Origin: a virus
Reading direction: 5' to 3' (one strand)
DNA length: 36,470 nt
IMG/VR virus record: IMGVR_UViG_3300029868_000028
Part shown: in pieces, positions 2,415 through 36,470 of the stretch
Numbering within the stretch: the stretch's first letter is position 1
How the letters are laid out: every line of letters starts with the position of its first letter
The notes under the pieces: model-generated
The model's database searches: none
What the model was told of the DNA's origin: nothing
Seen by the model: only the letters and a program-made list of their open reading frames with translations
Position numbers and translations under genes: made by a program

Positions 2415-4257
2415 AATTACAACATTAACCAGTCAACAAACAAAGCTTCTAAAATACACCCAAGCCATTTTAAAACCTAAACCAAAACTAACTGGTTCAG
2501 AGTGGGCTGATAAATATTTTTATTTATCTCCTGAGAGTTCAGCAAGTCCCGGAAAGTGGACAACACTACCTTATCAGATTGAGCCTATTGATTGTATGAC
2601 TGATGAAACTACTGAACAAGTTAGCTGGTGGAAGAGTGCGAGGGTTGGATATACAAAGTGTATAAATATTGCAGTAGCTTATCACATCCATCAAAATCCA
2701 GCTTCAATACTTTTAGCACAACCAACTGAAGCCGAGGCTTTTGGATATGCTGAAGATGAAATAGAACCAATGATTAGAGATAACGATGTAGTTTCTGAGG
2801 TCATTGGTAAGACAACAAAAAAAGGAAAATCAAAAAGAGAGAAAACTGCTAAGAAAACATACCCCGGTGGGATACTTGAATTAGTTGGAGCACATTCACC
2901 AAAGAACTTTAGAAGAAGAACTGTAAGAGTTTTTATAGGTGATGAGATTGATGGTTGGGAACAACAAGCTGGTCAAGAGGGTGACCAACTTGAACTAGGT
3001 AAAAAAAGAACTAATGATTTTTGGAATAGAAAAATAATTTTTGGCTCTTCACCGGGAATAGATGAACTGTCAAAAATTAAACCTGAATTTCTAAGAGGTG
3101 ACCAAAGATTTTATCATTTACCTTGTCCATATTGTGGTCATTTTCATAAGTTAGAATGGGCTAATTTTGATATGCCAAGAGATAAAAGCGGTGATTTAAT
3201 AGAAGAAGAAATTGGTTTTTTCTGTCCTAGCTGCGGAGTTAAATACAATGAAGATAATAAAATTTCAATGATTGAAAAAGGCAAGTGGATAGCTGCTAAG
3301 CCATTTAAAGGTCATGCAAGTTTTCATATATGGGCTGCTTATTCATATAATGCTAATTCATCATGGATAGCAATAGCTAAAGAGTGGTTTGAAGCCCAAG
3401 GAAAAATATTAAAACTAAAAGCTTTTACAATGTTAACACTTGGTGAAACTTGGGAAGATGAACAAGGTGAGAAGATTGAAGATGATGTACTTATGGCTAA
3501 TCGTGAAGATTATACAACTATACCAAGCGAAGCGGTAATTCTAACATGTGGTGTTGATACTCAAGATGATAGATTAGAGGGTGAGGTAAAAGCTTGGGGT
3601 GCTGGTGATGAAAGCTGGGGTGTTATTCCTTTTAGAATTGAGGGCAAACCAAGTCAAAAACAAGTATGGGAAGATTTAGACAATATAATAAATTCAACAT
3701 ATAAAAGAGCTGATGGTGTTCAGCTTAGAGTTAGTTGTACATGTATTGATAGTGGTGGTCACTTTACAAATGAAGTATATAAATATTGTAAAAAAAGAGC
3801 TATTAAAAGAGTGTTTGCAATCAAGGGTTCAAGTATAGCCGGTAAGCCTATAATATCAAGACCTACAACATCTAATAAATTGAAAGTTAAACTTTTTACG
3901 GTTGGAACTGATACTGCAAAAGAGTTAATTTTTTCAAGGCTTCAGCTGAAAGAATTTGGTGAGGGCTTCATGCACTTTAATAAAAACTTTGATGAAGAGT
4001 ATTTTAAAATGCTTACAAGTGAAAAGCTAGTGATAACTTTTAAAAAAGGTAGACCAGTCACGATATGGAAACCAATAAGACCAAGAAATGAGTCTCTTGA
4101 TTACACTGTTTACAATCTAGCAGCTTTATCAATACTAAACCCAAACTATAAAAAAATCCAAGAGAATATTTTACCGGCGAAAAAAGAAATAACTCAACAA
4201 CAAGCAAAAAAACTTTCAAGACCAAAAAAAGGAGGGTGGGCTAATGGCTGGAAATAA
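2407..4257 (+). CDS. terL: Terminase large subunit, lambda GpA family
   Basis: 616 aa. It contains the GpA-like LPYQIEPIDCM...WWKSARVGYTK region and a zinc-ribbon-like CPYCGH...CPSCG. It precedes the gpW-like and portal genes. Confidence 0.85.
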   Translation: MSKITTLTSQQTKLLKYTQAILKPKPKLTGSEWADKYFYLSPESSASPGKWTTLPYQIEPIDCMTDETTEQVSWWKSARVGYTKCINIAVAYHIHQNPASILLAQPTEAEAFGYAEDEIEPMIRDNDVVSEVIGKTTKKGKSKREKTAKKTYPGGILELVGAHSPKNFRRRTVRVFIGDEIDGWEQQAGQEGDQLELGKKRTNDFWNRKIIFGSSPGIDELSKIKPEFLRGDQRFYHLPCPYCGHFHKLEWANFDMPRDKSGDLIEEEIGFFCPSCGVKYNEDNKISMIEKGKWIAAKPFKGHASFHIWAAYSYNANSSWIAIAKEWFEAQGKILKLKAFTMLTLGETWEDEQGEKIEDDVLMANREDYTTIPSEAVILTCGVDTQDDRLEGEVKAWGAGDESWGVIPFRIEGKPSQKQVWEDLDNIINSTYKRADGVQLRVSCTCIDSGGHFTNEVYKYCKKRAIKRVFAIKGSSIAGKPIISRPTTSNKLKVKLFTVGTDTAKELIFSRLQLKEFGEGFMHFNKNFDEEYFKMLTSEKLVITFKKGRPVTIWKPIRPRNESLDYTVYNLAALSILNPNYKKIQENILPAKKEITQQQAKKLSRPKKGGWANGWK

Positions 4258-9984: not shown

Positions 9985-11071
9985 TATAGCGAATTTACCA
10001 AAGCCCAATGTAATGCAAGTGCTAGATTTTGAAGATATTTTAAATCAAAATATAGCAAATTTTAAAACATTAGTGCCGGACTGGATACCTTTAGAGAGCG
10101 ATGAGTTTAAAATGATACTTGAGGCTTTTTCTTATAGAGAGCTTCATTTGAGAGCTGAGTTCAATACTCTAGCTAATGCTTTTTTTCTTTCAACTGCAAC
10201 TGGTAATGACCTTGATAATTATGCTGCATTTTATGGTGTAGAACGGCTTAGTGGTAGTAAGCCATATGTGGATTATGATTTTAGTTTAAGCGAACCATTA
10301 ACTCAAGATGTAGTGATACCAGCAAATTTAGTTTTAACTGATGAAAATAGTGTTTATGAAGCAAAGCTTTTAAGTGCTTTAACAATTTTCGCCGGCGAAA
10401 TTAAATCCACTGGTGCGGTTGAATTACAGATAGAAATATCAAGTAGTGATGTTAAAACTGAAATTATTACCACACCTTTACCTTTTGTGGTGGCTGCTTC
10501 AGCTACTGACATTTTTTCTAATGGTAGTAATGTTGAAAGTGATGAAGAGTTTAGAGCTAGAATACTTCTAAGTTTGGCTGATAAATCAACTGCTGGAAGT
10601 GAAGAAACTTATAAGTCGTTTACATTTAATTCAGATGAACGAATAGAAGATGTTGCAATATTAAGTGAAGCAGCTGGAACTGTGAATGTATATTATTACA
10701 GTTCATTAGCTGATGATTTAATGAAGACTAGAATAGTTGCTATGCTGAATAAAAAAGATGTTAGACCACTTACAGATAATGTTGTGGTCAATAAAGCAAC
10801 TGAAATAAATTTTAATATAACTGCTGAACTAAAGATATTACCAAACCAAGAAACTGCAACTGTTTATAGCAATGCAGCAGCTAGTTTAACTGCTGGTTTA
10901 AAATCACTTAAACAAATTGGTACTGACATAACATTGAGTGAAATAAATCAATTTCTAAAAGTGAATGGTGTTAAAGAAGTTGTAGTGACTGCACCAGTAG
11001 ATAATGTACTGATAGCTGATAGTGAGATAGGAGTGAATAGTGTTCCAACAATCACTTATACCATCATTTGA
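9971..11071 (+). CDS. Baseplate protein, P2 gpJ-like
   Basis: 366 aa, positioned between the gpW-like and gpI-like genes. Confidence 0.65.
   Translation: MKMINIANLPKPNVMQVLDFEDILNQNIANFKTLVPDWIPLESDEFKMILEAFSYRELHLRAEFNTLANAFFLSTATGNDLDNYAAFYGVERLSGSKPYVDYDFSLSEPLTQDVVIPANLVLTDENSVYEAKLLSALTIFAGEIKSTGAVELQIEISSSDVKTEIITTPLPFVVAASATDIFSNGSNVESDEEFRARILLSLADKSTAGSEETYKSFTFNSDERIEDVAILSEAAGTVNVYYYSSLADDLMKTRIVAMLNKKDVRPLTDNVVVNKATEINFNITAELKILPNQETATVYSNAAASLTAGLKSLKQIGTDITLSEINQFLKVNGVKEVVVTAPVDNVLIADSEIGVNSVPTITYTII
10387..10400. repeat. 14-bp palindrome TTTCGCCGGCGAAA, copy 2 (in the gpJ-like gene)
   Basis: Read directly from the sequence. Confidence 0.9.
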
Positions 11072-12048: not shown

Positions 12049-13398
12049 ATGGCAGATATAAAAACAGCACAACAAACATTAGTGCGAAAAATACAAGAAA
12101 CAGCTGAGAGTACAAGCGACTTAGAAAAGTTAGCTTATGCTTCATCCGGTCTCGAAAAGTTAGCTAGTCAATCATTTGATACTTATATGGCTAGTGATAT
12201 GTTTAGTATCGGTAAGGTTGGTGAACAAGGCTTTGGTGTAGCAGCTATTGCTGATGAAGATTTACCAGCTGGGTTTGTAAAACTATATGGTCACGATGAT
12301 ATTACAAGTCCAAACTATGGAAATGTTTTAGACAATAATGGTTCTACTATGGTTTGGGTACCTAAGTTTTATTTTAAGATTGATGGTAATGTAGTATTTA
12401 TTTCAGATATTCAAGAAACTGGATATGTAATACACCGTGCTTTTGTTGACAATGGAATTAAAAAAGGCTTTTTTGTAGATAAATATGGGTGTGGTAATGT
12501 CGGTGGTAAGTTTATATCTAAACAAGGGATTGACCCATGTTCTACAAACTCAGCACACAACCCTATTAGTGCTTTAAACAATATACCAGCTAATAACTAT
12601 GGTGGACTTTATACAGCTGTAAAAACAAGAGGTAGTATTTTTGGACTTACTTCAGTATTTATTTACAAAGCTTTAGCACTATTAGCATATGCACAAGGTC
12701 AAGCAGCTACAAGTTCAGCAAACTGTGCCTTTATAGATGTTAACCCAAAAATGCCAAAAGGTAATTTAGTAAGTGCCTTACATGATGTAAATGATACGAG
12801 TGTAGTTTTTACTGCTAGTGGCTATTCAGATTGTGCCTTAACTGGTAGCGGTAATCCATTTGCAAAAACTACACACAATGGTCAATCATGTGGTGTTGCT
12901 GATTTAAATGGAAACATGTGGGAAGTAGCTAGTGGATTTATTCTTTTAGAAACTGTAGCTGCTTCACCGGCACCAACTGATTTTAGAGTACTCAAAGAAA
13001 CGGTTTCTATTGCTGATTTAGCAACTGATACTGAGGCTTACACTTCAGCTAATTATGACACTATTGATTTAACTGATTTAATCCCAGTTAACGAAACTGG
13101 TACATCGGTGTATTTTGGTAATGGTGTAAATCAAGTGTTTGCAATGAGTACAGATACAAATTCAGACCTTTATAAAAGAACTGCAATAGGTATTCCTATA
13201 GCTGATGGTGTTAGTGCTGCTGGTACTACTCAGTTTGGTAATGATTACTTATATAAGTATTTTAGAAATGAAATGGCTTGTATCGTCGGTGGGCATTGGG
13301 GTGACTCTTCTAGTGCCGGTGTTTTTGCTATGTATTTGAGCGCTAGCCGTCCTGGCTCGAGCGGCGCTGTGGGTGGTCGTGCCTCTTGTTTTGTGTAG
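12049..13398 (+). CDS. DGR target protein 1: fibre-tip/receptor-binding protein with a C-terminal FGE/C-type-lectin-like variable region
   Basis: The last about 37 codons (ACIVGGHWGDSSSAGVFAMYLSASRPGSSGAVGGRAS) are VR1. The body (WVPKFYF, HRAF, GFFVDKYGCGN) is paralogous to 26972..28069. Confidence 0.85.
   Translation: MADIKTAQQTLVRKIQETAESTSDLEKLAYASSGLEKLASQSFDTYMASDMFSIGKVGEQGFGVAAIADEDLPAGFVKLYGHDDITSPNYGNVLDNNGSTMVWVPKFYFKIDGNVVFISDIQETGYVIHRAFVDNGIKKGFFVDKYGCGNVGGKFISKQGIDPCSTNSAHNPISALNNIPANNYGGLYTAVKTRGSIFGLTSVFIYKALALLAYAQGQAATSSANCAFIDVNPKMPKGNLVSALHDVNDTSVVFTASGYSDCALTGSGNPFAKTTHNGQSCGVADLNGNMWEVASGFILLETVAASPAPTDFRVLKETVSIADLATDTEAYTSANYDTIDLTDLIPVNETGTSVYFGNGVNQVFAMSTDTNSDLYKRTAIGIPIADGVSAAGTTQFGNDYLYKYFRNEMACIVGGHWGDSSSAGVFAMYLSASRPGSSGAVGGRASCFV
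13276..13386 (+). repeat. DGR variable region VR1
   Basis: A 111-bp hand alignment to the TR gives 18 mismatches at TR adenines, one T>G, and one G>C in the 3' IMH-like end. Confidence 0.85.
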
Positions 13399-13426: not shown

Positions 13427-13819
13427 ATGGCAGTTCATAGTGAAGCAATTTTAAATAGGAAGTATATGGAAATGATGAAGTTATTAAATATTTATTTAAA
13501 CCATTTTCCAAGATTTGAAAAATATGCACTAGCAAACAACATTAGAAATACTGCATATGATGTTTATGATTTAATCACAGAATGTCAAAAACGGTATTAC
13601 AAAAAGACTTCACTAACTGAGCTTGATGTTACACATCAAAAGCTAAGAATGCAAATATATCTAGCTAATGAGCTTAATTATTTTGCTTTTAGAAATGGTA
13701 AAACAGATGTTAATGTTAATCCGGCACAAAGATTTTTATCAATCTCTTCTCTTATTGATGAGATAGGTAAATTGATAGGTGCTTGGATAAATAAATTAAA
13801 AGAAATGGGTAAGTTTTAA
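13427..13819 (+). CDS. avd: DGR accessory variability determinant (Avd-like four-helix-bundle protein)
   Basis: 130 aa (possibly a shorter start at ATG 13466). It has the HFPRFEKYALANNIRNTAYDVYDLITEC motif and lies between target and TR/RT. Confidence 0.75.
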   Translation: MAVHSEAILNRKYMEMMKLLNIYLNHFPRFEKYALANNIRNTAYDVYDLITECQKRYYKKTSLTELDVTHQKLRMQIYLANELNYFAFRNGKTDVNVNPAQRFLSISSLIDEIGKLIGAWINKLKEMGKF

Positions 13820-13854
13820 AGATGAAAGATTTAGGGCAATGTAGCAATATGAAA

Positions 13855-13965
13855 GCTTGTATCGTCGGTGGTAATTGGAGTAACTCTTCTAATGCCGGTG
13901 TTTTTGCTATGAATTTGAACAATAACCGTACTAACTCGAACAACAATGTGGGTGGTCGTGACTGT
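13855..13965 (+). repeat. DGR template repeat (TR)
   Basis: It matches VR1 and VR2. It holds 27 adenines and 11 AAY (Asn) codons in the VR reading frame. Its 3' end gtgggtggtcgtgACTGT differs from gtgggtggtcgtgCCTCT in both VRs (IMH* versus IMH). Confidence 0.85.
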
Positions 13966-13986
13966 ATTTCCAAACCTGAAACAACA

Positions 13987-15093
13987 ATGGTTGATACTGG
14001 AAATAGAGGGGTATATTGTCCTGGGATAACCGAAATCAAAATAGAAGAGAGTCTTTTTAGTAGCAATGTCGAAAAACAGACTGTCTCACAAAAATCTAAA
14101 AGAATTGGACATCTTTTTGAAAAAGCTTTTACTATGGAAAATCTGTATTTAGCCTATTTAGACGCAAGAAAAGGTAAGCGAAAAAAGAGGTCTACACTAA
14201 AGTTTGATATTAACCTTGGTGCTGAACTAAAAACACTTTGTGAAGAAATAAATGGTGGCACTTATAAGCCAAGACCATATTCTCAATTTTATGTATATGA
14301 ACCAAAAAAGAGATTAATAAATGCACCAGCATTTAGAGACCTAGTTGTGCAGCACTGTATTTACAGAGCCATATATGACACTTTTGATAAGAGTTTTGTT
14401 CATACATCATATGCTTGTAGAAAAGGTGGTGGTACTCATAAGGCTAGTGAATATACACAAAGAGAGATGAGAAAATACAATGGTGAGCTGTATTTTGTTA
14501 AGTTGGATATTCGTAAATTCTTTTACTCTATTGATAGAAATATATTAAGAGGTTTTTTTGAAAAAAAGATTAAAGATAAAAGGTTTGTAAACATTATGTG
14601 TGAATTTGCTGAGATGAATGGTGATAAAGGTATTCCTATAGGAAACCTACTATCTCAGATTTATGCACTTATTTATCTTAATCCATTAGACCATTTTATT
14701 AAAAGAGAATTGAAAGTTAAAAGCTATGTAAGGTATGTAGATGATTTTGTTTTGATAGGACTTACTTTAGAAAAAGCAAAAGAGTTTCAAGCTCGTTGTG
14801 AAAAGTTTGTACAAGATAATCTTAATCTTGAATTATCGCACTGGCATATTCAAAAGATTAAAAAAGGAATTAACTTTGTTGGTTATCGGACTTGGAAAAA
14901 GATTAAATTTGTAAGAAAACATAGCATGTATAAGTTTAAAAAGTTTGCAAAGAAGTCAAAAATAGAGTCAATAATTTCTCTTATTGGTCATGCAAAAGGC
15001 ACAGGTAGCATTGTGTATTTTCGGAAGATATGTATTGAGTCAAAAATCGTAAATTTATTACCAAAAAGGAGTGTATCGTGTTTAAATATGTAA
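13987..15093 (+). CDS. DGR reverse transcriptase (the start is uncertain; the open frame extends back to 13822 through the TR)
   Basis: Motifs present are IGNLLSQIYALIYLNPLDHF, YVRYVDDFVLIG (YxDD) and an N-terminal LFEKAFTMENLYLAYLDARKGKRKK. Confidence 0.85.
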   Translation: MVDTGNRGVYCPGITEIKIEESLFSSNVEKQTVSQKSKRIGHLFEKAFTMENLYLAYLDARKGKRKKRSTLKFDINLGAELKTLCEEINGGTYKPRPYSQFYVYEPKKRLINAPAFRDLVVQHCIYRAIYDTFDKSFVHTSYACRKGGGTHKASEYTQREMRKYNGELYFVKLDIRKFFYSIDRNILRGFFEKKIKDKRFVNIMCEFAEMNGDKGIPIGNLLSQIYALIYLNPLDHFIKRELKVKSYVRYVDDFVLIGLTLEKAKEFQARCEKFVQDNLNLELSHWHIQKIKKGINFVGYRTWKKIKFVRKHSMYKFKKFAKKSKIESIISLIGHAKGTGSIVYFRKICIESKIVNLLPKRSVSCLNM

Positions 15094-24548: not shown

Positions 24549-24625
24549 TGGTGGGCTTAGCAGGACTCGAACCTGCGACAACCCCGTTATGAGCGGGGGA
24601 CTCTAACCAGCTGAGTTATAAGCCC
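24549..24625 (-). tRNA. tRNA with CAU anticodon (elongator Met or Ile2), 77 nt with encoded CCA
   Basis: The hand-folded cloverleaf has acceptor GGGCTTA/TAAGCCC, D stem ACTC/GAGT, anticodon stem CCCCG/CGGGG with loop CTCATAA, and T stem GCAGG/CCTGC with loop TTCGAGT. G1-C72 argues against an initiator tRNA. Confidence 0.9.
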
Positions 24626-26438: not shown

Positions 26439-26981
26439 CTAAAATGGTATCTCATCACCATCTTCATCTTTTTGTGGTGCTGGTTGTTGGTAGCTTTGTT
26501 GCTGCTGTGGTGCTTGATAACTTGCTGGTGTTTGCTGTGAGTTGGCATAATCATCTTGATAGCCTTGATTGTTGTTATCTTGGGTATCTTGCATGGTTTT
26601 AATATCATAAAGATAATTAACCACTTCACCATCAAATCTTGGTTCAGCTTTCCAAACAGCTATAGAGACTTTTGTAAAAGCTACTTCAAGTGTCCCAGTC
26701 ATAAACTTTTTAAGTACACCATCAATAACCTTTTCACCAAGCCATAATGAACCAATAGCAATATCTCTAAAACTATCACCTTTATTTATGTTACTTCTAA
26801 GATAAATAATGAAGTCCGGTTGGTTTGGTTTTTCTTTTCTTTTGTTTGGTGTCATTTTTGCACTAAATGGTCTAATGCCAGCTATTCTAAAATGACATTC
26901 AAGCCATTTAATTACTTTACTCTCTTTTGTATCTTTATCTTTTACACTCATACTTTCTTGTTTTATGAAACCTATTTGCAT
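26439..26981 (-). CDS. DUF736-like domain protein with a Q/P-rich linker and SSB-type acidic C-terminal tip (..DEDGDEIPF)
   Basis: The N-terminus has IGF...NQPDFIIY...IGSLW, a DUF736-like pattern from recall. The C-terminal architecture mimics the SSB linker plus DDDIPF tip. Confidence 0.45.
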   Translation of the reverse strand: MQIGFIKQESMSVKDKDTKESKVIKWLECHFRIAGIRPFSAKMTPNKRKEKPNQPDFIIYLRSNINKGDSFRDIAIGSLWLGEKVIDGVLKKFMTGTLEVAFTKVSIAVWKAEPRFDGEVVNYLYDIKTMQDTQDNNNQGYQDDYANSQQTPASYQAPQQQQSYQQPAPQKDEDGDEIPF

Positions 26982-28069
26982 TTTAATTTTCCTTTTTTAT
27001 TGTTTAATTTATTATATAGTGAGCTATCGCTCACTATTACAGAGGCACGACCACCCACAGTGTTGCTCGAGTAAGTACGGTTATTGTACAAATACATAGC
27101 AAAAACACCGGCATTAGAAGAGTTACCCCAATTACCACCGACGAGACAAGCTAGTTCATTCCTAGCATATCTATACACACCAGCCTTAGCAAATCTTTCA
27201 TTACTATTATCACTAAGTGCTTTTGTTCTAGGAATACCCATACATGTTTTTATATAATCTTTAGAGTAAATATCATCACTCATTTTAAAAGCTGTAGTTT
27301 CATCGCTGGTATACTTCCAACCACCATCACCAATAAACTTAGTCAAGTCTAAATTATCATAAAAAGTTTCATTATATGCCTCAGTATCACTTTCAAGTTC
27401 AGCAGCTGCTGAATTAAACTTAAGCACTTTAAAAATTCCATCTTCATCATTTAGTTTAGTTAGTCCAGCTGCAACTTCATATCTTGATGGGTCAATGTTT
27501 TTTACACCACATTCTTGATTGTTATGAAACTTCATTTGTTCTAACTTATTTCCATTATTTGCATAAGCCAACATTCCTAAAGCATTCCAAATAAATAGAG
27601 TTGTTAAAAAATGCTTATCACCTCTTGTTTTAACCGCTTTATACAGTCCACCAAGGTTAGAGTTAGGATTGTTACTTAAATGCGAAATAGAGTCATTCCC
27701 ATAAGTACTACAAGGTTTTAAATCTTCTTTACTTGTAAACTTACCATCCACATTACCACATTCATATTTATCTATGAAAAAACCATCTTGTTCAGCACCA
27801 CCATCTATAAAAGCACGGTGTAAAACATAACCATCTTTTTCAACTGCTGAAATCTTACATTTGTTCTTTTTAGTCCACTTAAAATAAAACCTAGGTATCC
27901 ATACCATCACTGAACCATTATCATCTAAAACATTTCCATAGTTGGAATGTTCCGGGTTATCGTGACCATCTAATTTACTCCAACCTTTTGGAACTTGTTT
28001 ATCTTCAATGGCTGCTACACCAAAACCTACTTCACCAGCTACACCAATTAAATCTACATTATGTTCCAT
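26972..28069 (-). CDS. DGR target protein 2 (remote): FGE/C-type-lectin-like paralog of 12049..13398 lacking its N-terminal about 50-60 aa
   Basis: It shares blocks GFGVAAI, NYGNVLD.NGS.MVW.P.FYF, GYV.HRAF, GFF.DKY.CGNV.GKF, and GGLY.AVKTRG. Its C-terminus ACLVGGNWGNSSNAGVFAMYLYNNRTYSSNTVGGRAS is VR2. An AGGA RBS lies upstream. Confidence 0.85.
   Translation of the reverse strand: MEHNVDLIGVAGEVGFGVAAIEDKQVPKGWSKLDGHDNPEHSNYGNVLDDNGSVMVWIPRFYFKWTKKNKCKISAVEKDGYVLHRAFIDGGAEQDGFFIDKYECGNVDGKFTSKEDLKPCSTYGNDSISHLSNNPNSNLGGLYKAVKTRGDKHFLTTLFIWNALGMLAYANNGNKLEQMKFHNNQECGVKNIDPSRYEVAAGLTKLNDEDGIFKVLKFNSAAAELESDTEAYNETFYDNLDLTKFIGDGGWKYTSDETTAFKMSDDIYSKDYIKTCMGIPRTKALSDNSNERFAKAGVYRYARNELACLVGGNWGNSSNAGVFAMYLYNNRTYSSNTVGGRASVIVSDSSLYNKLNNKKGKLKCK
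27017..27036 (-). promoter_or_regulatory. Perfect 8-bp stem / 4-nt loop hairpin (TAGTGAGC-GATA-GCTCACTA) 4 nt downstream of VR2
   Basis: Read directly from the sequence. Its position and geometry match the DGR target hairpin/cruciform described for Bordetella phage BPP-1. Confidence 0.7.
27041..27151 (-). repeat. DGR variable region VR2
   Basis: The reverse complement aligns over 111 bp to the TR. There are 8 mismatches, all at TR adenines, plus the same 3' G>C seen in VR1. Confidence 0.85.
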
Positions 28070-28183
28070 CTTATTTTCCTTTTATGCTTACTATCACTTT
28101 GCCTTTTCTCTTTATGGCATTCACTAATCCCTCATCTACTGAGTATTGAAAGATTTTTATTAGATCATCAATACCGACCACTA

Positions 28184-28193
28184 CCCCCCCCCC
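28184..28193 (-). repeat. Homopolymeric G10 tract (C10 on the plus strand) 115-124 nt upstream of the DGR target 2 start codon
   Basis: Read directly. No other G/C homopolymer run of comparable length was seen in the window. Confidence 0.9.
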
Positions 28194-28237
28194 TAAGAAA
28201 CAAGTTATCTATATTTATTCTAATCTCTGTTTTTTCA

Positions 28238-28747
28238 TCATTTACTTGCATGTTGTATTTCCTTTATATTTTTATTTGCTCTAACTACACTTGAATAGTA
28301 AGAAACGGTTACCTCTCTTTGATAAACTATTGCACTACCACACACTCCACATTCAATAGTGCCACTATCAATATATTCCCAATTATCACTAAACTCATTA
28401 GCACAATTAGGACATGTAATCTCATCATTATCATGACTTGTTTCATTGAATGGTGGTTCTTTAATCTCTTCAACTGAAAGAAGATTTAGTTTAAAATCTT
28501 GGTGACATAATTTATAAAATTTATCATCAATTTTAATTATTCCACTTTCAAATTCAACACCATCATCAAGTTCTTTTATTATCTCAAAATCATCAATAGT
28601 CTTACTTACTTTAGCAACTACTGATACATCCCATTTAACTATGTAAAAAGTGCTTTGTTCTTTTACTTCACAATGCTCAGAACACATACCACATAAACCA
28701 GTTTCATCTACAATAGGGTAACTACAACAGTTACTTATTTTTTTCAT
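28238..28747 (-). CDS. Hypothetical zinc-ribbon protein
   Basis: Cys clusters CC..x..CGMCSEHC and CPNC...CGVCG are present. The gene is coupled to parB. Confidence 0.4.
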   Translation of the reverse strand: MKKISNCCSYPIVDETGLCGMCSEHCEVKEQSTFYIVKWDVSVVAKVSKTIDDFEIIKELDDGVEFESGIIKIDDKFYKLCHQDFKLNLLSVEEIKEPPFNETSHDNDEITCPNCANEFSDNWEYIDSGTIECGVCGSAIVYQREVTVSYYSSVVRANKNIKEIQHASK

Positions 28748-29643
28748 TATCCTAACCTCACAAATTCATTATTTATCATCACATAGATATTAAGTTCTTC
28801 TAAGTGGTAATTTCCACCTACTCCACCTAAAACCTCACCAAAATGGTCACTATCTTTTTTTGTTGGTATAGTTACCTCAAAAGGGACCGGCTTACCATCT
28901 TTAGTATGATAAGACTGCTGAGAATAATGCTTTGAAGATTTTTTAATCATTGCATATAGTTGAGTTTCTTTTTTCGCCGGCGAAATTTTTACATCTTTTA
29001 TTACTTTTATAGCTCTGTTATAGTGTCTTATTTCCTCTCTTGTTAAATTTGTTTGATAAGCTTCAAGTTGCTTAGCTTCATCTTTTATATTACTAAGCTC
29101 TTGCAATATCTCTAAACCAATATCTTTTTTATTAGCTTCAATATCAGCTACTATTTCATCACATATTTTTACAGCTTTAAAGACCTTTGATAAATAGCTT
29201 TGTGGTTTACCTATTGCAGCAGCTAATTCTTTTTTAGTTTCATAGTTTTTACTAGCCCAAAGCTGATTTATAAATTTTGCTTTTTCAAAATCTGTTAAAT
29301 CATCCCTTTGGATATTTTCTACAAGTGCTAATTCAAGTACCTTTTTTTCATCGGCTACTATTATGTGAGCTTTGATAGTTTTTAGTTCAAGTGTTTCACA
29401 TGCTCTAAATCTTCTTTCACCGCTGATAATCATGTATTTACTATCAACTTTAACAACTGCTATAGGTTGAATTAAGCCATTAGTAGAAATACTAGCTGCT
29501 AACTCATCAATCTCATTAAAGCTTTTTCTAGGCTGGTTAGGGTTCGGATATACTTTGTGTAGTTCAAGCTCTAAAAATGGACTTACACCAGTAGTTCTAA
29601 CCTTTCCTTTAGTAGCTGAATTAATCGCTGATAAGTTCATCAC
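28747..29643 (-). CDS. parB: ParB-like partition/nuclease-domain protein
   Basis: VYPNPNQPRKSF...LIQPIAVV...YMIISGERRFRA is present. Confidence 0.85.
   Translation of the reverse strand: MMNLSAINSATKGKVRTTGVSPFLELELHKVYPNPNQPRKSFNEIDELAASISTNGLIQPIAVVKVDSKYMIISGERRFRACETLELKTIKAHIIVADEKKVLELALVENIQRDDLTDFEKAKFINQLWASKNYETKKELAAAIGKPQSYLSKVFKAVKICDEIVADIEANKKDIGLEILQELSNIKDEAKQLEAYQTNLTREEIRHYNRAIKVIKDVKISPAKKETQLYAMIKKSSKHYSQQSYHTKDGKPVPFEVTIPTKKDSDHFGEVLGGVGGNYHLEELNIYVMINNEFVRLG
28972..28985. repeat. 14-bp palindrome TTTCGCCGGCGAAA, copy 3 (in parB)
   Basis: Read directly from the sequence. Confidence 0.9.
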
Positions 29644-30232
29644 ATAGCCTTTTAATTTCGCCAGCTGCTACTTTGTCTTTTACATCAAAAACAGATTTAC
29701 CAACACCTAAAGTATCTTTGTAAATTTTTCTATTTCTTATGATAGATTTTTGCAGTTTTATTTGTGGGTTATCACCAATAGCTCCAGTAATCACATCAAA
29801 GTTTTTAGCTAATGGGTGTATGTTGTTCAGTACCACATTAATGAAAGGGTTTTGTATCTCTTGTAGTATCGCTTCAAATGTTTTAAAACCAAGTACCTCA
29901 GTAACACTATTTGCAATAGGTACTACAACTTTATCAGCCCAAGAGATAGCAATACGGTTAATATCATTATCAAAACCACCTACATCAACTATAAGGTATC
30001 CATCATAGTTTTCAAATAGTTCTATAAGTTCATCACCGCTTTGTGGTTGAACTACATCTAAACTATCAAGCTTTGTTTCTACTCTTATATGGTTGATAAA
30101 AAAAAGTGTTTGTTGAAAATCTAAATCAACTATAGTTACTTTTTTACCATCGGCTTTTAAAGAGTTAGCCAAGTTCCAAGCAAGGGTAGATTTACCAGTG
30201 CCACCTTTTGAATGTGCTACTGTAATAATCAT
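29621..30232 (-). CDS. parA: ParA-like partition ATPase (small, no N-terminal HTH)
   Basis: It has the deviant Walker A motif HSKGGTGKST, is 203 aa long, and overlaps parB. Confidence 0.85.
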   Translation of the reverse strand: MIITVAHSKGGTGKSTLAWNLANSLKADGKKVTIVDLDFQQTLFFINHIRVETKLDSLDVVQPQSGDELIELFENYDGYLIVDVGGFDNDINRIAISWADKVVVPIANSVTEVLGFKTFEAILQEIQNPFINVVLNNIHPLAKNFDVITGAIGDNPQIKLQKSIIRNRKIYKDTLGVGKSVFDVKDKVAAGEIKRLCDELISD

Positions 30233-30358
30233 AGTACCACCTCAGATAATCTATAAATTAGTTCTTCAAAACTAACAAATATGCCTTTTATATTTTCTAA
30301 CATCCCAGTTCCTTTTTATCTATCTAGTTATAAATCTTTATAACCTTTTAGATATTGT

Positions 30359-30430
30359 TATATCATAATCATACAGATTGAATGATTAAGAATAACTTAA
30401 AAACCATTCATACTGTATGATTATGATATA
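30359..30430. promoter_or_regulatory. Perfect 18-bp inverted repeat (TATATCATAATCATACAG / CTGTATGATTATGATATA) with a 36-bp partly palindromic spacer, between parA and 30452
   Basis: Read directly. The arms carry TGnTATAAT-like extended -10 elements facing outward (TGATATAAT at 30424..32). Confidence 0.6.
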
Positions 30431-30451
30431 ATTTTATAAAAAAGGGATGTA

Positions 30452-32124: not shown

Positions 32125-32171
32125 TATGTGAAAACCCCTTTACATTCAAATTGTATCAAATATACTCAAAC

Positions 32172-32219
32172 GAATTGAATGGTTTTTAAGTTCTTATTAA
32201 CCATTCATTCTGTATGATT
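32172..32219. promoter_or_regulatory. Operator-like element in the cI / cro-like intergenic region, similar to 30376..30425
   Basis: By eye, about 38 of 52 positions are identical. The flanks ATTGAATG and AACCATTCATnCTGTATGATT are conserved, and there is an internal 8-bp dyad GAATGGTT/AACCATTC. Confidence 0.5.
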
Positions 32220-32224
32220 TTGTT

Positions 32225-32449
32225 ATGAAACGAAAAAACCTTAAAAAACTACTACTAAAATCATATACAGTTGCTGGTGCTGATTTAATCTTAAGAGGTG
32301 ATAGAAAGCCTCGGTATGAAATCATGGTTGAACTAGCTAAAAAGAATAAAATTCCTTTTGGTATTTGGCTTGATATTAAATCTTATTTAAAGAATGATAC
32401 AAAAGATTGTGGTGTTGAGTCTAATACAAAACAAGATACAAGGGTATAA
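32225..32449 (+). CDS. Cro-like small regulator (assigned by position; the start is uncertain and no clear RBS is present)
   Basis: It is divergent from the repressor and 74 aa long. Confidence 0.35.
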   Translation: MKRKNLKKLLLKSYTVAGADLILRGDRKPRYEIMVELAKKNKIPFGIWLDIKSYLKNDTKDCGVESNTKQDTRV

Positions 32450-34971: not shown

Positions 34972-35105
34972 TGACTGGATTTTTAAAAGGTCGTGCAATT
35001 AGTCAAGTTGATAAACTCTTGATTGATGGTAAAGAATATACAAAAGAAGATATTTTAAAAATGATAATAAACTCTAAAATTTCGCCGGCGAAAAAACAAA
35101 AATGA
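34971..35105 (+). CDS. Small hypothetical ORF (44 aa) containing one TTTCGCCGGCGAAA palindrome
   Basis: Its ATG overlaps the preceding stop (TAATG). It is absent from the supplied ORF track, presumably because of its size. Confidence 0.3.
   Translation: MTGFLKGRAISQVDKLLIDGKEYTKEDILKMIINSKISPAKKQK
35080..35093. repeat. 14-bp palindrome TTTCGCCGGCGAAA, copy 4 (in small ORF 34971..35105)
   Basis: Read directly from the sequence. Confidence 0.9.
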
Positions 35106-36185: not shown

Positions 36186-36470
36186 TTCTAGTCGATATGG
36201 GTACAAAGTACAGCTATACCATTTAAAAGATGGAGATATTACTTATTATATAGTTTATAAAGATGGTCAAGAAAGATACTGCAAGAAAATAGGTAGAAAA
36301 TCTGATGGTATTACTGAAAAAAAATGTATAGACCTTAGAAGCCAAATATTAAGTGAACAAAGACATGGTGTTGACCTAAGCCAAAAGAGTTTCAAACATC
36401 TAACTTTTGATAAATTAGCTGAGAGATATTTTTCAAGCCTTGAACTATCTAGCCAAAAGAGATACCAGCA
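36178..36470 (+). CDS. int: Integrase 1, N-terminal portion (continues at base 1 after circularisation)
   Basis: The same frame is open from GTG 36178 (alternative ATG 36130) through the repeat into 1..903. It encodes ...GYKVQLYHLKDGDITYYIVYKDG..., resembling the N-terminal arm-binding region of integrase 2. The exact start is uncertain. Confidence 0.6.
   Translation, partial: MINSSRYGYKVQLYHLKDGDITYYIVYKDGQERYCKKIGRKSDGITEKKCIDLRSQILSEQRHGVDLSQKSFKHLTFDKLAERYFSSLELSSQKRYQ
36352..36470. repeat. Terminal direct repeat, right copy (identical to 1..119)
   Basis: Base-by-base identity read directly. Confidence 0.95.

Follow-up and report, generated by a model that had tools for sequence, protein, structure and literature searches.

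Homopolymer tracts that act as contingency loci in bacteriophages have been recognised only recently, in the Fletchervirus phages of Campylobacter in 2021 and in the T-even phages in 2025. The former carry hypermutable polyG tracts, at least as Sorensen et al. 2021 is cited in PMC10877375 and in bioRxiv 10.1101/2025.10.21.683753, while in T2 and T4 the contingency loci include agt and rIIA, for which bet-hedging against host defence has been proposed (Gomez, Barrick & Waters 2025, bioRxiv 10.1101/2025.10.21.683753). In addition, the same preprint cites Liu et al. 2004 for a polyG in the methylase gene of BPP-1, the Bordetella phage that is the archetype of those bearing a diversity-generating retroelement (DGR). 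Here we consider a run of ten G residues in a virus sequence of 36,470 bp, IMG/VR record IMGVR_UViG_3300029868_000028, which in its whole length we call the window; the run lies upstream of one of two genes (target 2) that a DGR diversifies. Our view, which we hold with reasonable confidence, is that this G10 is a hypermutable slipped-strand contingency tract in a small early gene of a temperate phage or phage-plasmid. As an element it is of a known kind, phage polyG contingency, and what is new here is the gene family.

The tract and its immediate surroundings are as follows.

28184..28193, minus (coding) strand: G10 homopolymer tract, C10 on the plus strand, flanked by A at 28183 and T at 28194
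28071..28251, minus strand: small early gene, 181 nt here (G10), 180 nt with G9, when it encodes the 59-aa protein MQVNDEKTEIRINIDNLFLRGGVVVGIDDLIKIFQYSVDEGLVNAIKRKGKVIVSIKGK
28168..28251, minus strand: truncated frame that is open in the window (G10), 27 aa (MQVNDEKTEIRINIDNLFLRGGGSGRY), then a stop
28260..28264, minus strand: AAGGA Shine-Dalgarno-like motif, 8 nt upstream of the small-gene ATG, within the 3' end of the zinc-ribbon gene
28238..28747, minus strand: gene for a 169-aa zinc-ribbon protein, its last 14 nt overlapping the start of the small gene
26972..28069, minus strand: DGR target 2, 365 aa, with its own AAGGA motif upstream of its ATG

A preliminary description of this DNA, made from its letters alone, had reported the C10/G10 at 28184-28193 as the only G/C run of comparable length, and both the position and the uniqueness hold: it is the sole G/C run of at least 6 nt in a window that is 31.9% GC. 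A first-order Markov model leads one to expect 0.0017 runs of at least 10 nt and 0.05 of at least 8 nt per window, and not one run of at least 10 appeared in 300 simulated windows. The same description placed the tract in an intergenic gap between the zinc-ribbon open reading frame (ORF) and target 2, and this needs correcting in part, since the ORF coordinates and the 168 nt between them are right, but that stretch is not intergenic: it is a small minus-strand gene, split by the tract. Within this gene the tract supplies the codons for Arg-Gly-Gly (AGG GGG GGG G) and is one G above the in-frame G9. Tract lengths of G9 and G12 keep the frame open between the ATG at 28251 and the TAA at 28073-28071, giving 59 aa; G8, G10 and G11 give products of 22-27 aa, and the G10 of the window leads to a stop after 27 aa (…RGGGSGRY*). 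This is just what is looked for in a contingency locus, namely a homopolymer of at least about 7 nt within a reading frame (G10 in 28251..28071, minus strand), in which one unit more or less toggles between a full-length and a truncated product. The plus-strand ORF of 77 aa at 28061..28294, which reads the tract as PPP and which had already been doubted, is spurious, because it runs antisense to a coding sequence that is conserved, and because the G9 allele shortens it.

Support for a switch comes from other assemblies of the very same phage, all from subseafloor crustal-fluid metagenomes of North Pond on the flank of the Mid-Atlantic Ridge (Holes U1383C Shallow and Deep). A protein search with the G9 reading recovered an identical 59-aa protein (cluster P0001), called on JGI contig Ga0071102_1000475 (L001 in our numbering) and on Logan contig SRR2226463_136 (L002), and four further contigs were found through the neighbouring zinc-ribbon protein. 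Over 1.9-16.7 kb, these six assemblies have no mismatch to the window outside the tract, except for one single-nucleotide polymorphism (SNP) in L008, and the tract itself is read as follows, ON denoting the full-length frame and OFF the truncated one.

Window: G10, OFF
L001: G9, ON
L002: G9, ON
L009: G9, ON
L006: G10, OFF
L007: G10, OFF
L008: A replaces the first G (A+G9, total length as G10), plus one SNP at 27446, OFF

Otherwise identical genomes are therefore polymorphic in tract length, at the level of assemblies and not of reads. The sequencing was by Illumina HiSeq from low-input libraries (PMC4776111), and as this platform is not prone to homopolymer errors, it supports a real variation in length. 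We also observed that the L009 contig ends 25 nt past the tract, as might happen if the assembly broke where the sequence was heterogeneous, and that L002 ends at window position 27103, inside VR2, the variable repeat of target 2; breaks at exactly both hypervariable sites suggest within-sample heterogeneity at both of them.

Beyond this one phage, an exhaustive HMMER and profile search assembled 31 protein clusters of a family of small proteins, found in temperate phages and prophages of Campylobacterota, whose full-length members have 53-67 aa and share the motif EI+L.I.NLFF.GGV…QY.[LI]D..[LI]V.V.KRKGK. (Two large repeat proteins that HMMER also returned, P0010 and P0013, look like repeat-amplified chance matches and were set aside.) Two sister phages, L003 and L004 (the latter the same contig as L005, from a Sulfurimonas sp. 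metagenome-assembled genome, or MAG), share with the window the order ParA, ParB, zinc ribbon, small gene, target 2, a gene resembling that for single-stranded DNA-binding protein (SSB), HTH_17 and integrase. Both retain the two halves of the protein and the AAGGA motif of the small gene, and both have G8 at the same codons and are out of frame, the in-frame lengths being G7 or G10 in L003 and G9 in L004. For members L012-L019 and L024-L028, the DNA of the tract site was read directly.

L012: TTG CGG GGG GGG GTA, G9, ON
L018 (= L020): codons as in L012, G9, ON
L019 (= L022): context as in L012, G10, OFF
L013, L014, L015 (three samples): GAG GGG GGG GTA, G8, ON
L017: TTG GGG GGG GTA, G8, ON
L024, L025, L026 (three runs): GAG GGG GGG G GTA, G9, OFF
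L027, L028 (prophage in a 1.9-Mb contig): GAG GGG GGG GTA, G8, ON
L016: GAT GGT GTT, no tract

Of the eight sequence groups, seven thus have a G8-G10 tract at this same pair of glycine codons, the L016 type being the exception, and in each relative's locus (1-16 kb) it is the only G/C run of at least 6. The 21 distinct contigs divide into 11 in frame and 10 out of frame, and there is a second lineage with both states, L012 (G9) and L022 (G10) being 94-97% identical. The comparison of tract length in relatives that the preliminary description had proposed therefore comes out in favour of variation, with G9, G10 and A+G9 in the same phage and both in-frame and out-of-frame lengths in its relatives; its suggestion of a slipped-strand, phase-variable element gains support from the variants in near-identical assemblies and from homologous tracts in either frame.

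It might be asked whether a family that needs two glycines at this site would not carry such a run in any case. However, GGG is the rarest glycine codon of the window (6.6% of Gly codons), and both tract glycines are GGG in every tract-bearing lineage; the residue in front of them varies (R, S, E or L), yet, apart from L003 (AGT), every such lineage has G as the last base of the codon for it. That the rare GGG is kept twice and that the preceding codon is G-ended point to selection for the homopolymer itself, beyond any for Gly-Gly, and with its position constant across seven of the eight groups, in spite of codon bias and divergence, the tract is kept by selection as a contingency locus would be. 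The frame behind it is conserved too, for in the C-terminal half of the protein pS, the proportion of synonymous differences, is about 0.55 across three lineages (window, L003 and L004), with a ratio of nonsynonymous to synonymous differences (pN/pS) of 0.11-0.20, so this half is translated in that frame and is under purifying selection.

The same switch also explains why the gene is so easily overlooked. Fragments of 36-43 aa make up 12 of the 31 clusters, 11 of them C-terminal and one N-terminal (P0030), and most of the C-terminal ones start at a Met just after the tract; such fragments are what one expects gene callers to make of OFF alleles, and when fragment cluster P0031 was checked at the DNA level, three samples proved to have a G9 OFF allele. 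In about half of the assemblies the small gene is either split or missed by gene callers, and what is left resembles an intergenic gap. Several further searches reached less far: L010 and L011 have zinc-ribbon homologues and no small gene, a distant blastn search of 26900-30300 against GenBank phages gave no match, nothing came from scanning IMG/VR with the zinc-ribbon protein or with the DNA pattern AAAACAGAGATWAGAATAAAT, nor from scanning JGI metagenome contigs with the zinc-ribbon alignment, and a scan of a genome collection returned only the 3-kb Sulfurimonas MAG contig (L004).

How might such a switch work? Polymerase slippage during replication of the phage or prophage would add or remove one G, so that G9 would yield the full 59-aa protein and G10 a frameshift after Arg-Gly-Gly and an end at 27 aa. 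Reversible switching at a high rate in vivo would then produce ON and OFF subpopulations, and the population as a whole could hedge between expressing the small protein and not doing so. There may be a consequence for target 2 as well, as only 1 nt separates the stop of the small gene from the target-2 ATG (TAAGATG). In the ON state, a ribosome would terminate 1 nt before the next ATG, which could favour coupled re-initiation and modestly more target 2, and the OFF state would leave 98 nt untranslated. Judging from the sequence, the effect of tract length on target 2 is probably modest, and at most indirect, through translational coupling.

Stronger forms of influence on target 2 were considered and rejected. 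Marked Rho polarity over the 98 untranslated nt is unlikely and is not expected, because the stretch is poor in C (9 C against 21 G) and target 2 is preceded by an AAGGA motif of its own. Were a frameshift to join the small ORF to target 2, it would enter a frame with a stop 4 codons before the ATG of target 2, and there is no slippery site; the idea that an RNA hairpin hides the target-2 ribosome-binding site is unsupported, the predicted fold having z = +0.5 against shuffled sequences. In the sister phages, the junction of the small gene and target 2 contains an insertion of about 16 nt with a run of A8 or A9 (L003, about 10105-10135; L004, about 1050-1090), and in L004 the target-2 ATG is followed after three codons by an in-frame TAA, so that the gene is called from a downstream TTG.

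Of course, a homopolymer that differs between assemblies invites a much duller explanation, in which the true genome has G9 and an ordinary small gene, and G10 and the other out-of-frame lengths are errors of library PCR or of the consensus. Several facts lean that way: the tract is the only differing position, as it would be at an error hotspot, the contigs with G9 and those with G10 derive from a small number of Illumina libraries, low-input and PCR-amplified, of which some were re-assembled, and some of the relatives seem to be long-read assemblies (contig names 'ctg...l'). Even so, we regard error as an improbable account of the whole pattern, since alleles are out of frame in five independent groups and many samples (the window with L006 and L007, L003, L004, L019, and L024-26), the three separate runs of L024-26 all give G9, L008 has a true substitution at the first tract G, and consensus errors at a 10-nt run are uncommon with Illumina. 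Indeed, even if single calls were wrong, a G8-G10 built of the rarest glycine codon and kept at a pS of about 0.55 requires selection for the tract. There are nevertheless points that weigh against a switch and that we would not wish to hide. The polymorphism is one seen between assemblies; the libraries were low-input and PCR-amplified (Ovation Ultralow), and G9 against G10 could in part be library-PCR slippage or the choice of an assembler. Several of the seven same-phage contigs are re-assemblies of the same 2012 libraries, and the accessions of samples 3300029926 and 3300029927 are in, or adjoin, a range given for reassembled 2012-2014 metagenomes (bioRxiv 10.1101/2020.08.03.235341), so the seven are not independent data sets. 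The searches have a bias of their own, with matches to the full-length protein favouring ON alleles and matches to half of it favouring OFF alleles. Slippage in the host may be slower than in Campylobacter, given that the chromosomes of S. denitrificans and A. butzleri are reported without hypervariable G:C tracts (PMC2147049), and transcriptional slippage on G9-G10 could blur the distinction between ON and OFF. Finally, the small protein matches no Pfam or PDB family, its structural model reaches a mean confidence (pLDDT) of only 70, and a fold search gave no significant match.

Slippage can also occur at the level of RNA. Long homopolymers promote slippage by RNA polymerase, and it is conceivable that transcriptional slippage or ribosomal frameshifting yields both a short and a full product from each allele, with variation in DNA length being secondary; about half of the alleles being out of frame while the C-terminal half is under purifying selection would fit the making of some full-length product. 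We think such programmed recoding unlikely. Programmed sites are normally fixed out of frame, but in-frame alleles occur in six of the eight groups (11 of 21 contigs), and the sign of the shift differs, being +1 G in the window, L003, L019 and L024-26 and -1 G in L004. The tails in the alternative frame (GSGRY*, *, CSRN* and KYE*) are unconserved, and no stimulatory RNA structure is found (z = +0.5), so that none of the three hallmarks of a programmed frameshift or slippage site, namely a fixed out-of-frame state, a conserved second-frame product and a stimulator, is present. Poly-G promoter switches occur in Neisseria and Haemophilus, and with the tract on the same strand as target 2 and 115 nt upstream of its ATG, the preliminary description had envisaged a spacer that alters promoter spacing or readthrough and so directly controls target-2 transcription. 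This we find very hard to believe. In the Neisseria porA/opc type of switch the tract lies in non-coding DNA at the -35/-10 elements, but here both flanks are coding, conserved at the protein level and under purifying selection; the minus strand from 28238 to 28069 has no sigma-70-like promoter or intrinsic terminator, and the RNA there folds no better than shuffled sequence (z = +0.5). Moreover, in relatives the tract occurs with an SSB gene, a RecT-adjacent gene or a gene of unknown kind downstream, or with a DGR-target-like gene upstream. What the tract would switch is the small gene itself and not a promoter of target 2.

What, then, is the relation of the tract to the DGR, on whose hypervariation it was first thought to be stacked? 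The window does carry such an element, as shown by an RVT_1 match with E = 6e-17, a bAvd match with E = 8e-17 and a template repeat (TR) paired with the variable repeats VR1 and VR2.

13822..15093, plus strand: DGR reverse transcriptase (RVT_1)
13427-13819: bAvd
about 13854-13963: TR
13263-13384: VR1, in target 1 (12049-13398, plus strand)
27043..27152, minus strand: VR2, in target 2, with every TR mismatch at a TR adenine
26439..26981, minus strand: SSB-like gene, 180 aa, with a Gln-rich linker and a C-terminal DEIPF tail (PHROG 18154, weak, E = 0.02)

Target 2 is a paralogue of target 1, with 42% identity, and starts at Met47 of target 1, without the first 46 aa. The small ORF was tried as a counterpart of this missing N-terminus and discarded, for it resembles neither target 1 nor the gene that precedes target 1. 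Together with the missing N-terminus, the location of target 2 in the parAB/early operon, outside the tail genes, suggests that its product, though diversified by the DGR, is not carried on the virion, and the 180-aa gene behind it is probably a divergent phage SSB. In L013-15, an SSB (PF00436) follows the small gene directly, overlapping it at TAATG; in the window's lineage, where the SSB-like gene comes after target 2, it is target 2 that separates the small gene from the SSB gene with which it is usually paired. Other members keep similar company, the small gene lying between a DUF3799 PDDEXK nuclease and RecT in L016, after RecT and before the integrase in L027-28, and before DUF1351, a Rep_O-like gene, DUF3799 and RecT in L024-26. 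The tract is therefore not a DGR component, since it occurs in relatives with SSB or RecT neighbours and no DGR target nearby; nor is it part of the TR, a VR, an initiation-of-mutagenic-homing (IMH) site or a link to the target, but belongs to a separate gene. It is a feature of the small-gene family, one that predates the DGR target and is independent of it, and the adjacency of the two is incidental, so that any stacking on DGR hypervariation would be at most indirect, through translational coupling.

A second gene of this type was nevertheless seen beside the small gene. In the L012/L018/L019 lineage, an Mtd-like gene (342 aa; PF21916, E = 4e-8) lies directly upstream of it, at 3932-4960 in L018 (= L020 6058-7083), 2360-3301 in L012 and 10001-10939 in L022, and encodes a protein with a VR-like Gly/Trp-rich C-terminus and no detectable similarity to target 2. 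No TR for it was found in the 17-21 kb of sequence of L018/L020/L022, and its contigs were not returned by a scan of IMG/VR based on the reverse transcriptase. Genes of the DGR-target type thus touch the small gene in two lineages, on opposite sides (target 2 downstream, the Mtd-like gene upstream), and because they abut it in two separate lineages one may at least entertain a bolder idea, that the poly-G gene serves the early recombination/SSB module of temperate Campylobacterota phages as an ON/OFF switch, stochastic and conserved, and in DGR-bearing members perhaps also gates a remote, non-structural DGR target, by coupling or as a protein partner. We give this little credence, the link between poly-G and DGR being so far circumstantial, but if it were true, a single cassette would join two lotteries, one of expression through phase variation and one of sequence through DGR mutagenesis.

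The function of the small protein can be addressed only tentatively. Neither Pfam, PHROGs nor PDB sequences gave it a significant match, and AlphaFold2 models reached a pLDDT of 55 with 3 sequences (poor) and 70 with 5 sequences (moderate). The better model is a beta-beta-helix-beta-hairpin with the basic KRKGK at the hairpin turn; Foldseek found no match for it with E < 0.49, and the sole resemblance of fold is that of helix plus beta-hairpin to the wing of winged-helix DNA-binding proteins. With no family match, a moderate model and no significant fold neighbour, the benefit of switching has to be a guess, and ours, of low confidence, is that the protein is either a nucleic-acid-binding accessory of the recombination/SSB module or one that is sensed by host defences. 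If the latter, its stochastic silencing would be useful, as has been proposed for T2 agt and T4 rIIA.

As for the genome as a whole, bases 1-119 are an exact repeat of 36352-36470, so the window is a circularly closed, complete element of 36,351 bp, and ParAB and an integrase together suggest a phage-plasmid or an integrative temperate phage. Its host is probably Sulfurimonas, on the indirect evidence of the 3-kb MAG contig, the dominance of Sulfurimonas in the source samples (PMC4776111) and GC content; some other members of the family are labelled as Aliarcobacter butzleri MAGs. Further features of the window that caught our attention are listed here.

2020-2033, 10387-10400, 28972-28985 and 35080-35093: a 14-bp GC-rich palindrome, TTTCGCCGGCGAAA, four times, once inside parB
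30344-30445 and 32162-32226: related inverted/direct repeats of 44-65 nt, ATAATCATACAG…CTGTATGATTAT, upstream of parA and beside the S24-repressor gene
24549-24625, minus strand: complete tRNA-Met (CAT), between the lysis/lipoprotein genes and the integrase gene

The four palindromes are probably dispersed parS-like centromere sites for ParAB, the longer repeats look like operator or partition-regulation sites, and the tRNA-Met could be phage-borne or a marker of the att region.

In our opinion, the interest of this locus is that many temperate phages of environmental Campylobacterota, though diverged, have kept a homopolymer at one codon in a single small early gene, and that ON and OFF alleles coexist in subseafloor metagenomes. 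It is a defined target for testing whether phages hedge their early or recombination functions, and whether a neighbouring DGR-diversified protein is influenced by it.

Set beside the systems with which we began, a close likeness is to the Fletchervirus phages, as far as the citing texts describe them, for there too a G7-G11 lies within an ORF of a phage with a Campylobacterota host, length decides between ON and OFF, and there are subpopulations. In those lytic C. jejuni myoviruses the genes concerned are receptor-binding or structural ones, whereas here we have a 59-aa early gene beside recombination/SSB genes, in temperate phages of environmental Sulfurimonas- and Arcobacter-type hosts, and the same codon is involved across the whole protein family. 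The polyG/C genes of C. jejuni and H. pylori are similar in having an intragenic G8-G11, ON/OFF switching by slippage of one unit and an AT-rich genome, but they are chromosomal genes for surface structures or restriction-modification. By contrast, the chromosomes of S. denitrificans, A. butzleri and W. succinogenes have been reported to be free of hypervariable G:C tracts (PMC2147049), and it is therefore the phage, not the host, that carries the contingency locus here. T2 and T4 share with this case homopolymers in phage genes of many functional classes and reversible frameshifts; they differ in that their runs, in AT-rich coliphages, are mostly of at least 6 nt and come with measured reversion and phenotypes, whereas the evidence here is comparative and concerns a G8-G10 in a 32%-GC genome otherwise without such runs. 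BPP-1, going by its citation, is likewise a DGR-bearing temperate phage with a polyG in a non-DGR gene. A parallel to its methylase was noticed in sister phage L003, where a C9 on the plus strand at 3112-3120, read as G9 in the coding sense, lies some 80 nt from the start of a DNA_methylase gene (PF00145; 2122..3198, minus strand) that is, from its sequence, a candidate phase-variable methyltransferase. In BPP-1, however, the tract is away from the DGR target, whereas the tract-bearing gene described here abuts a remote one.

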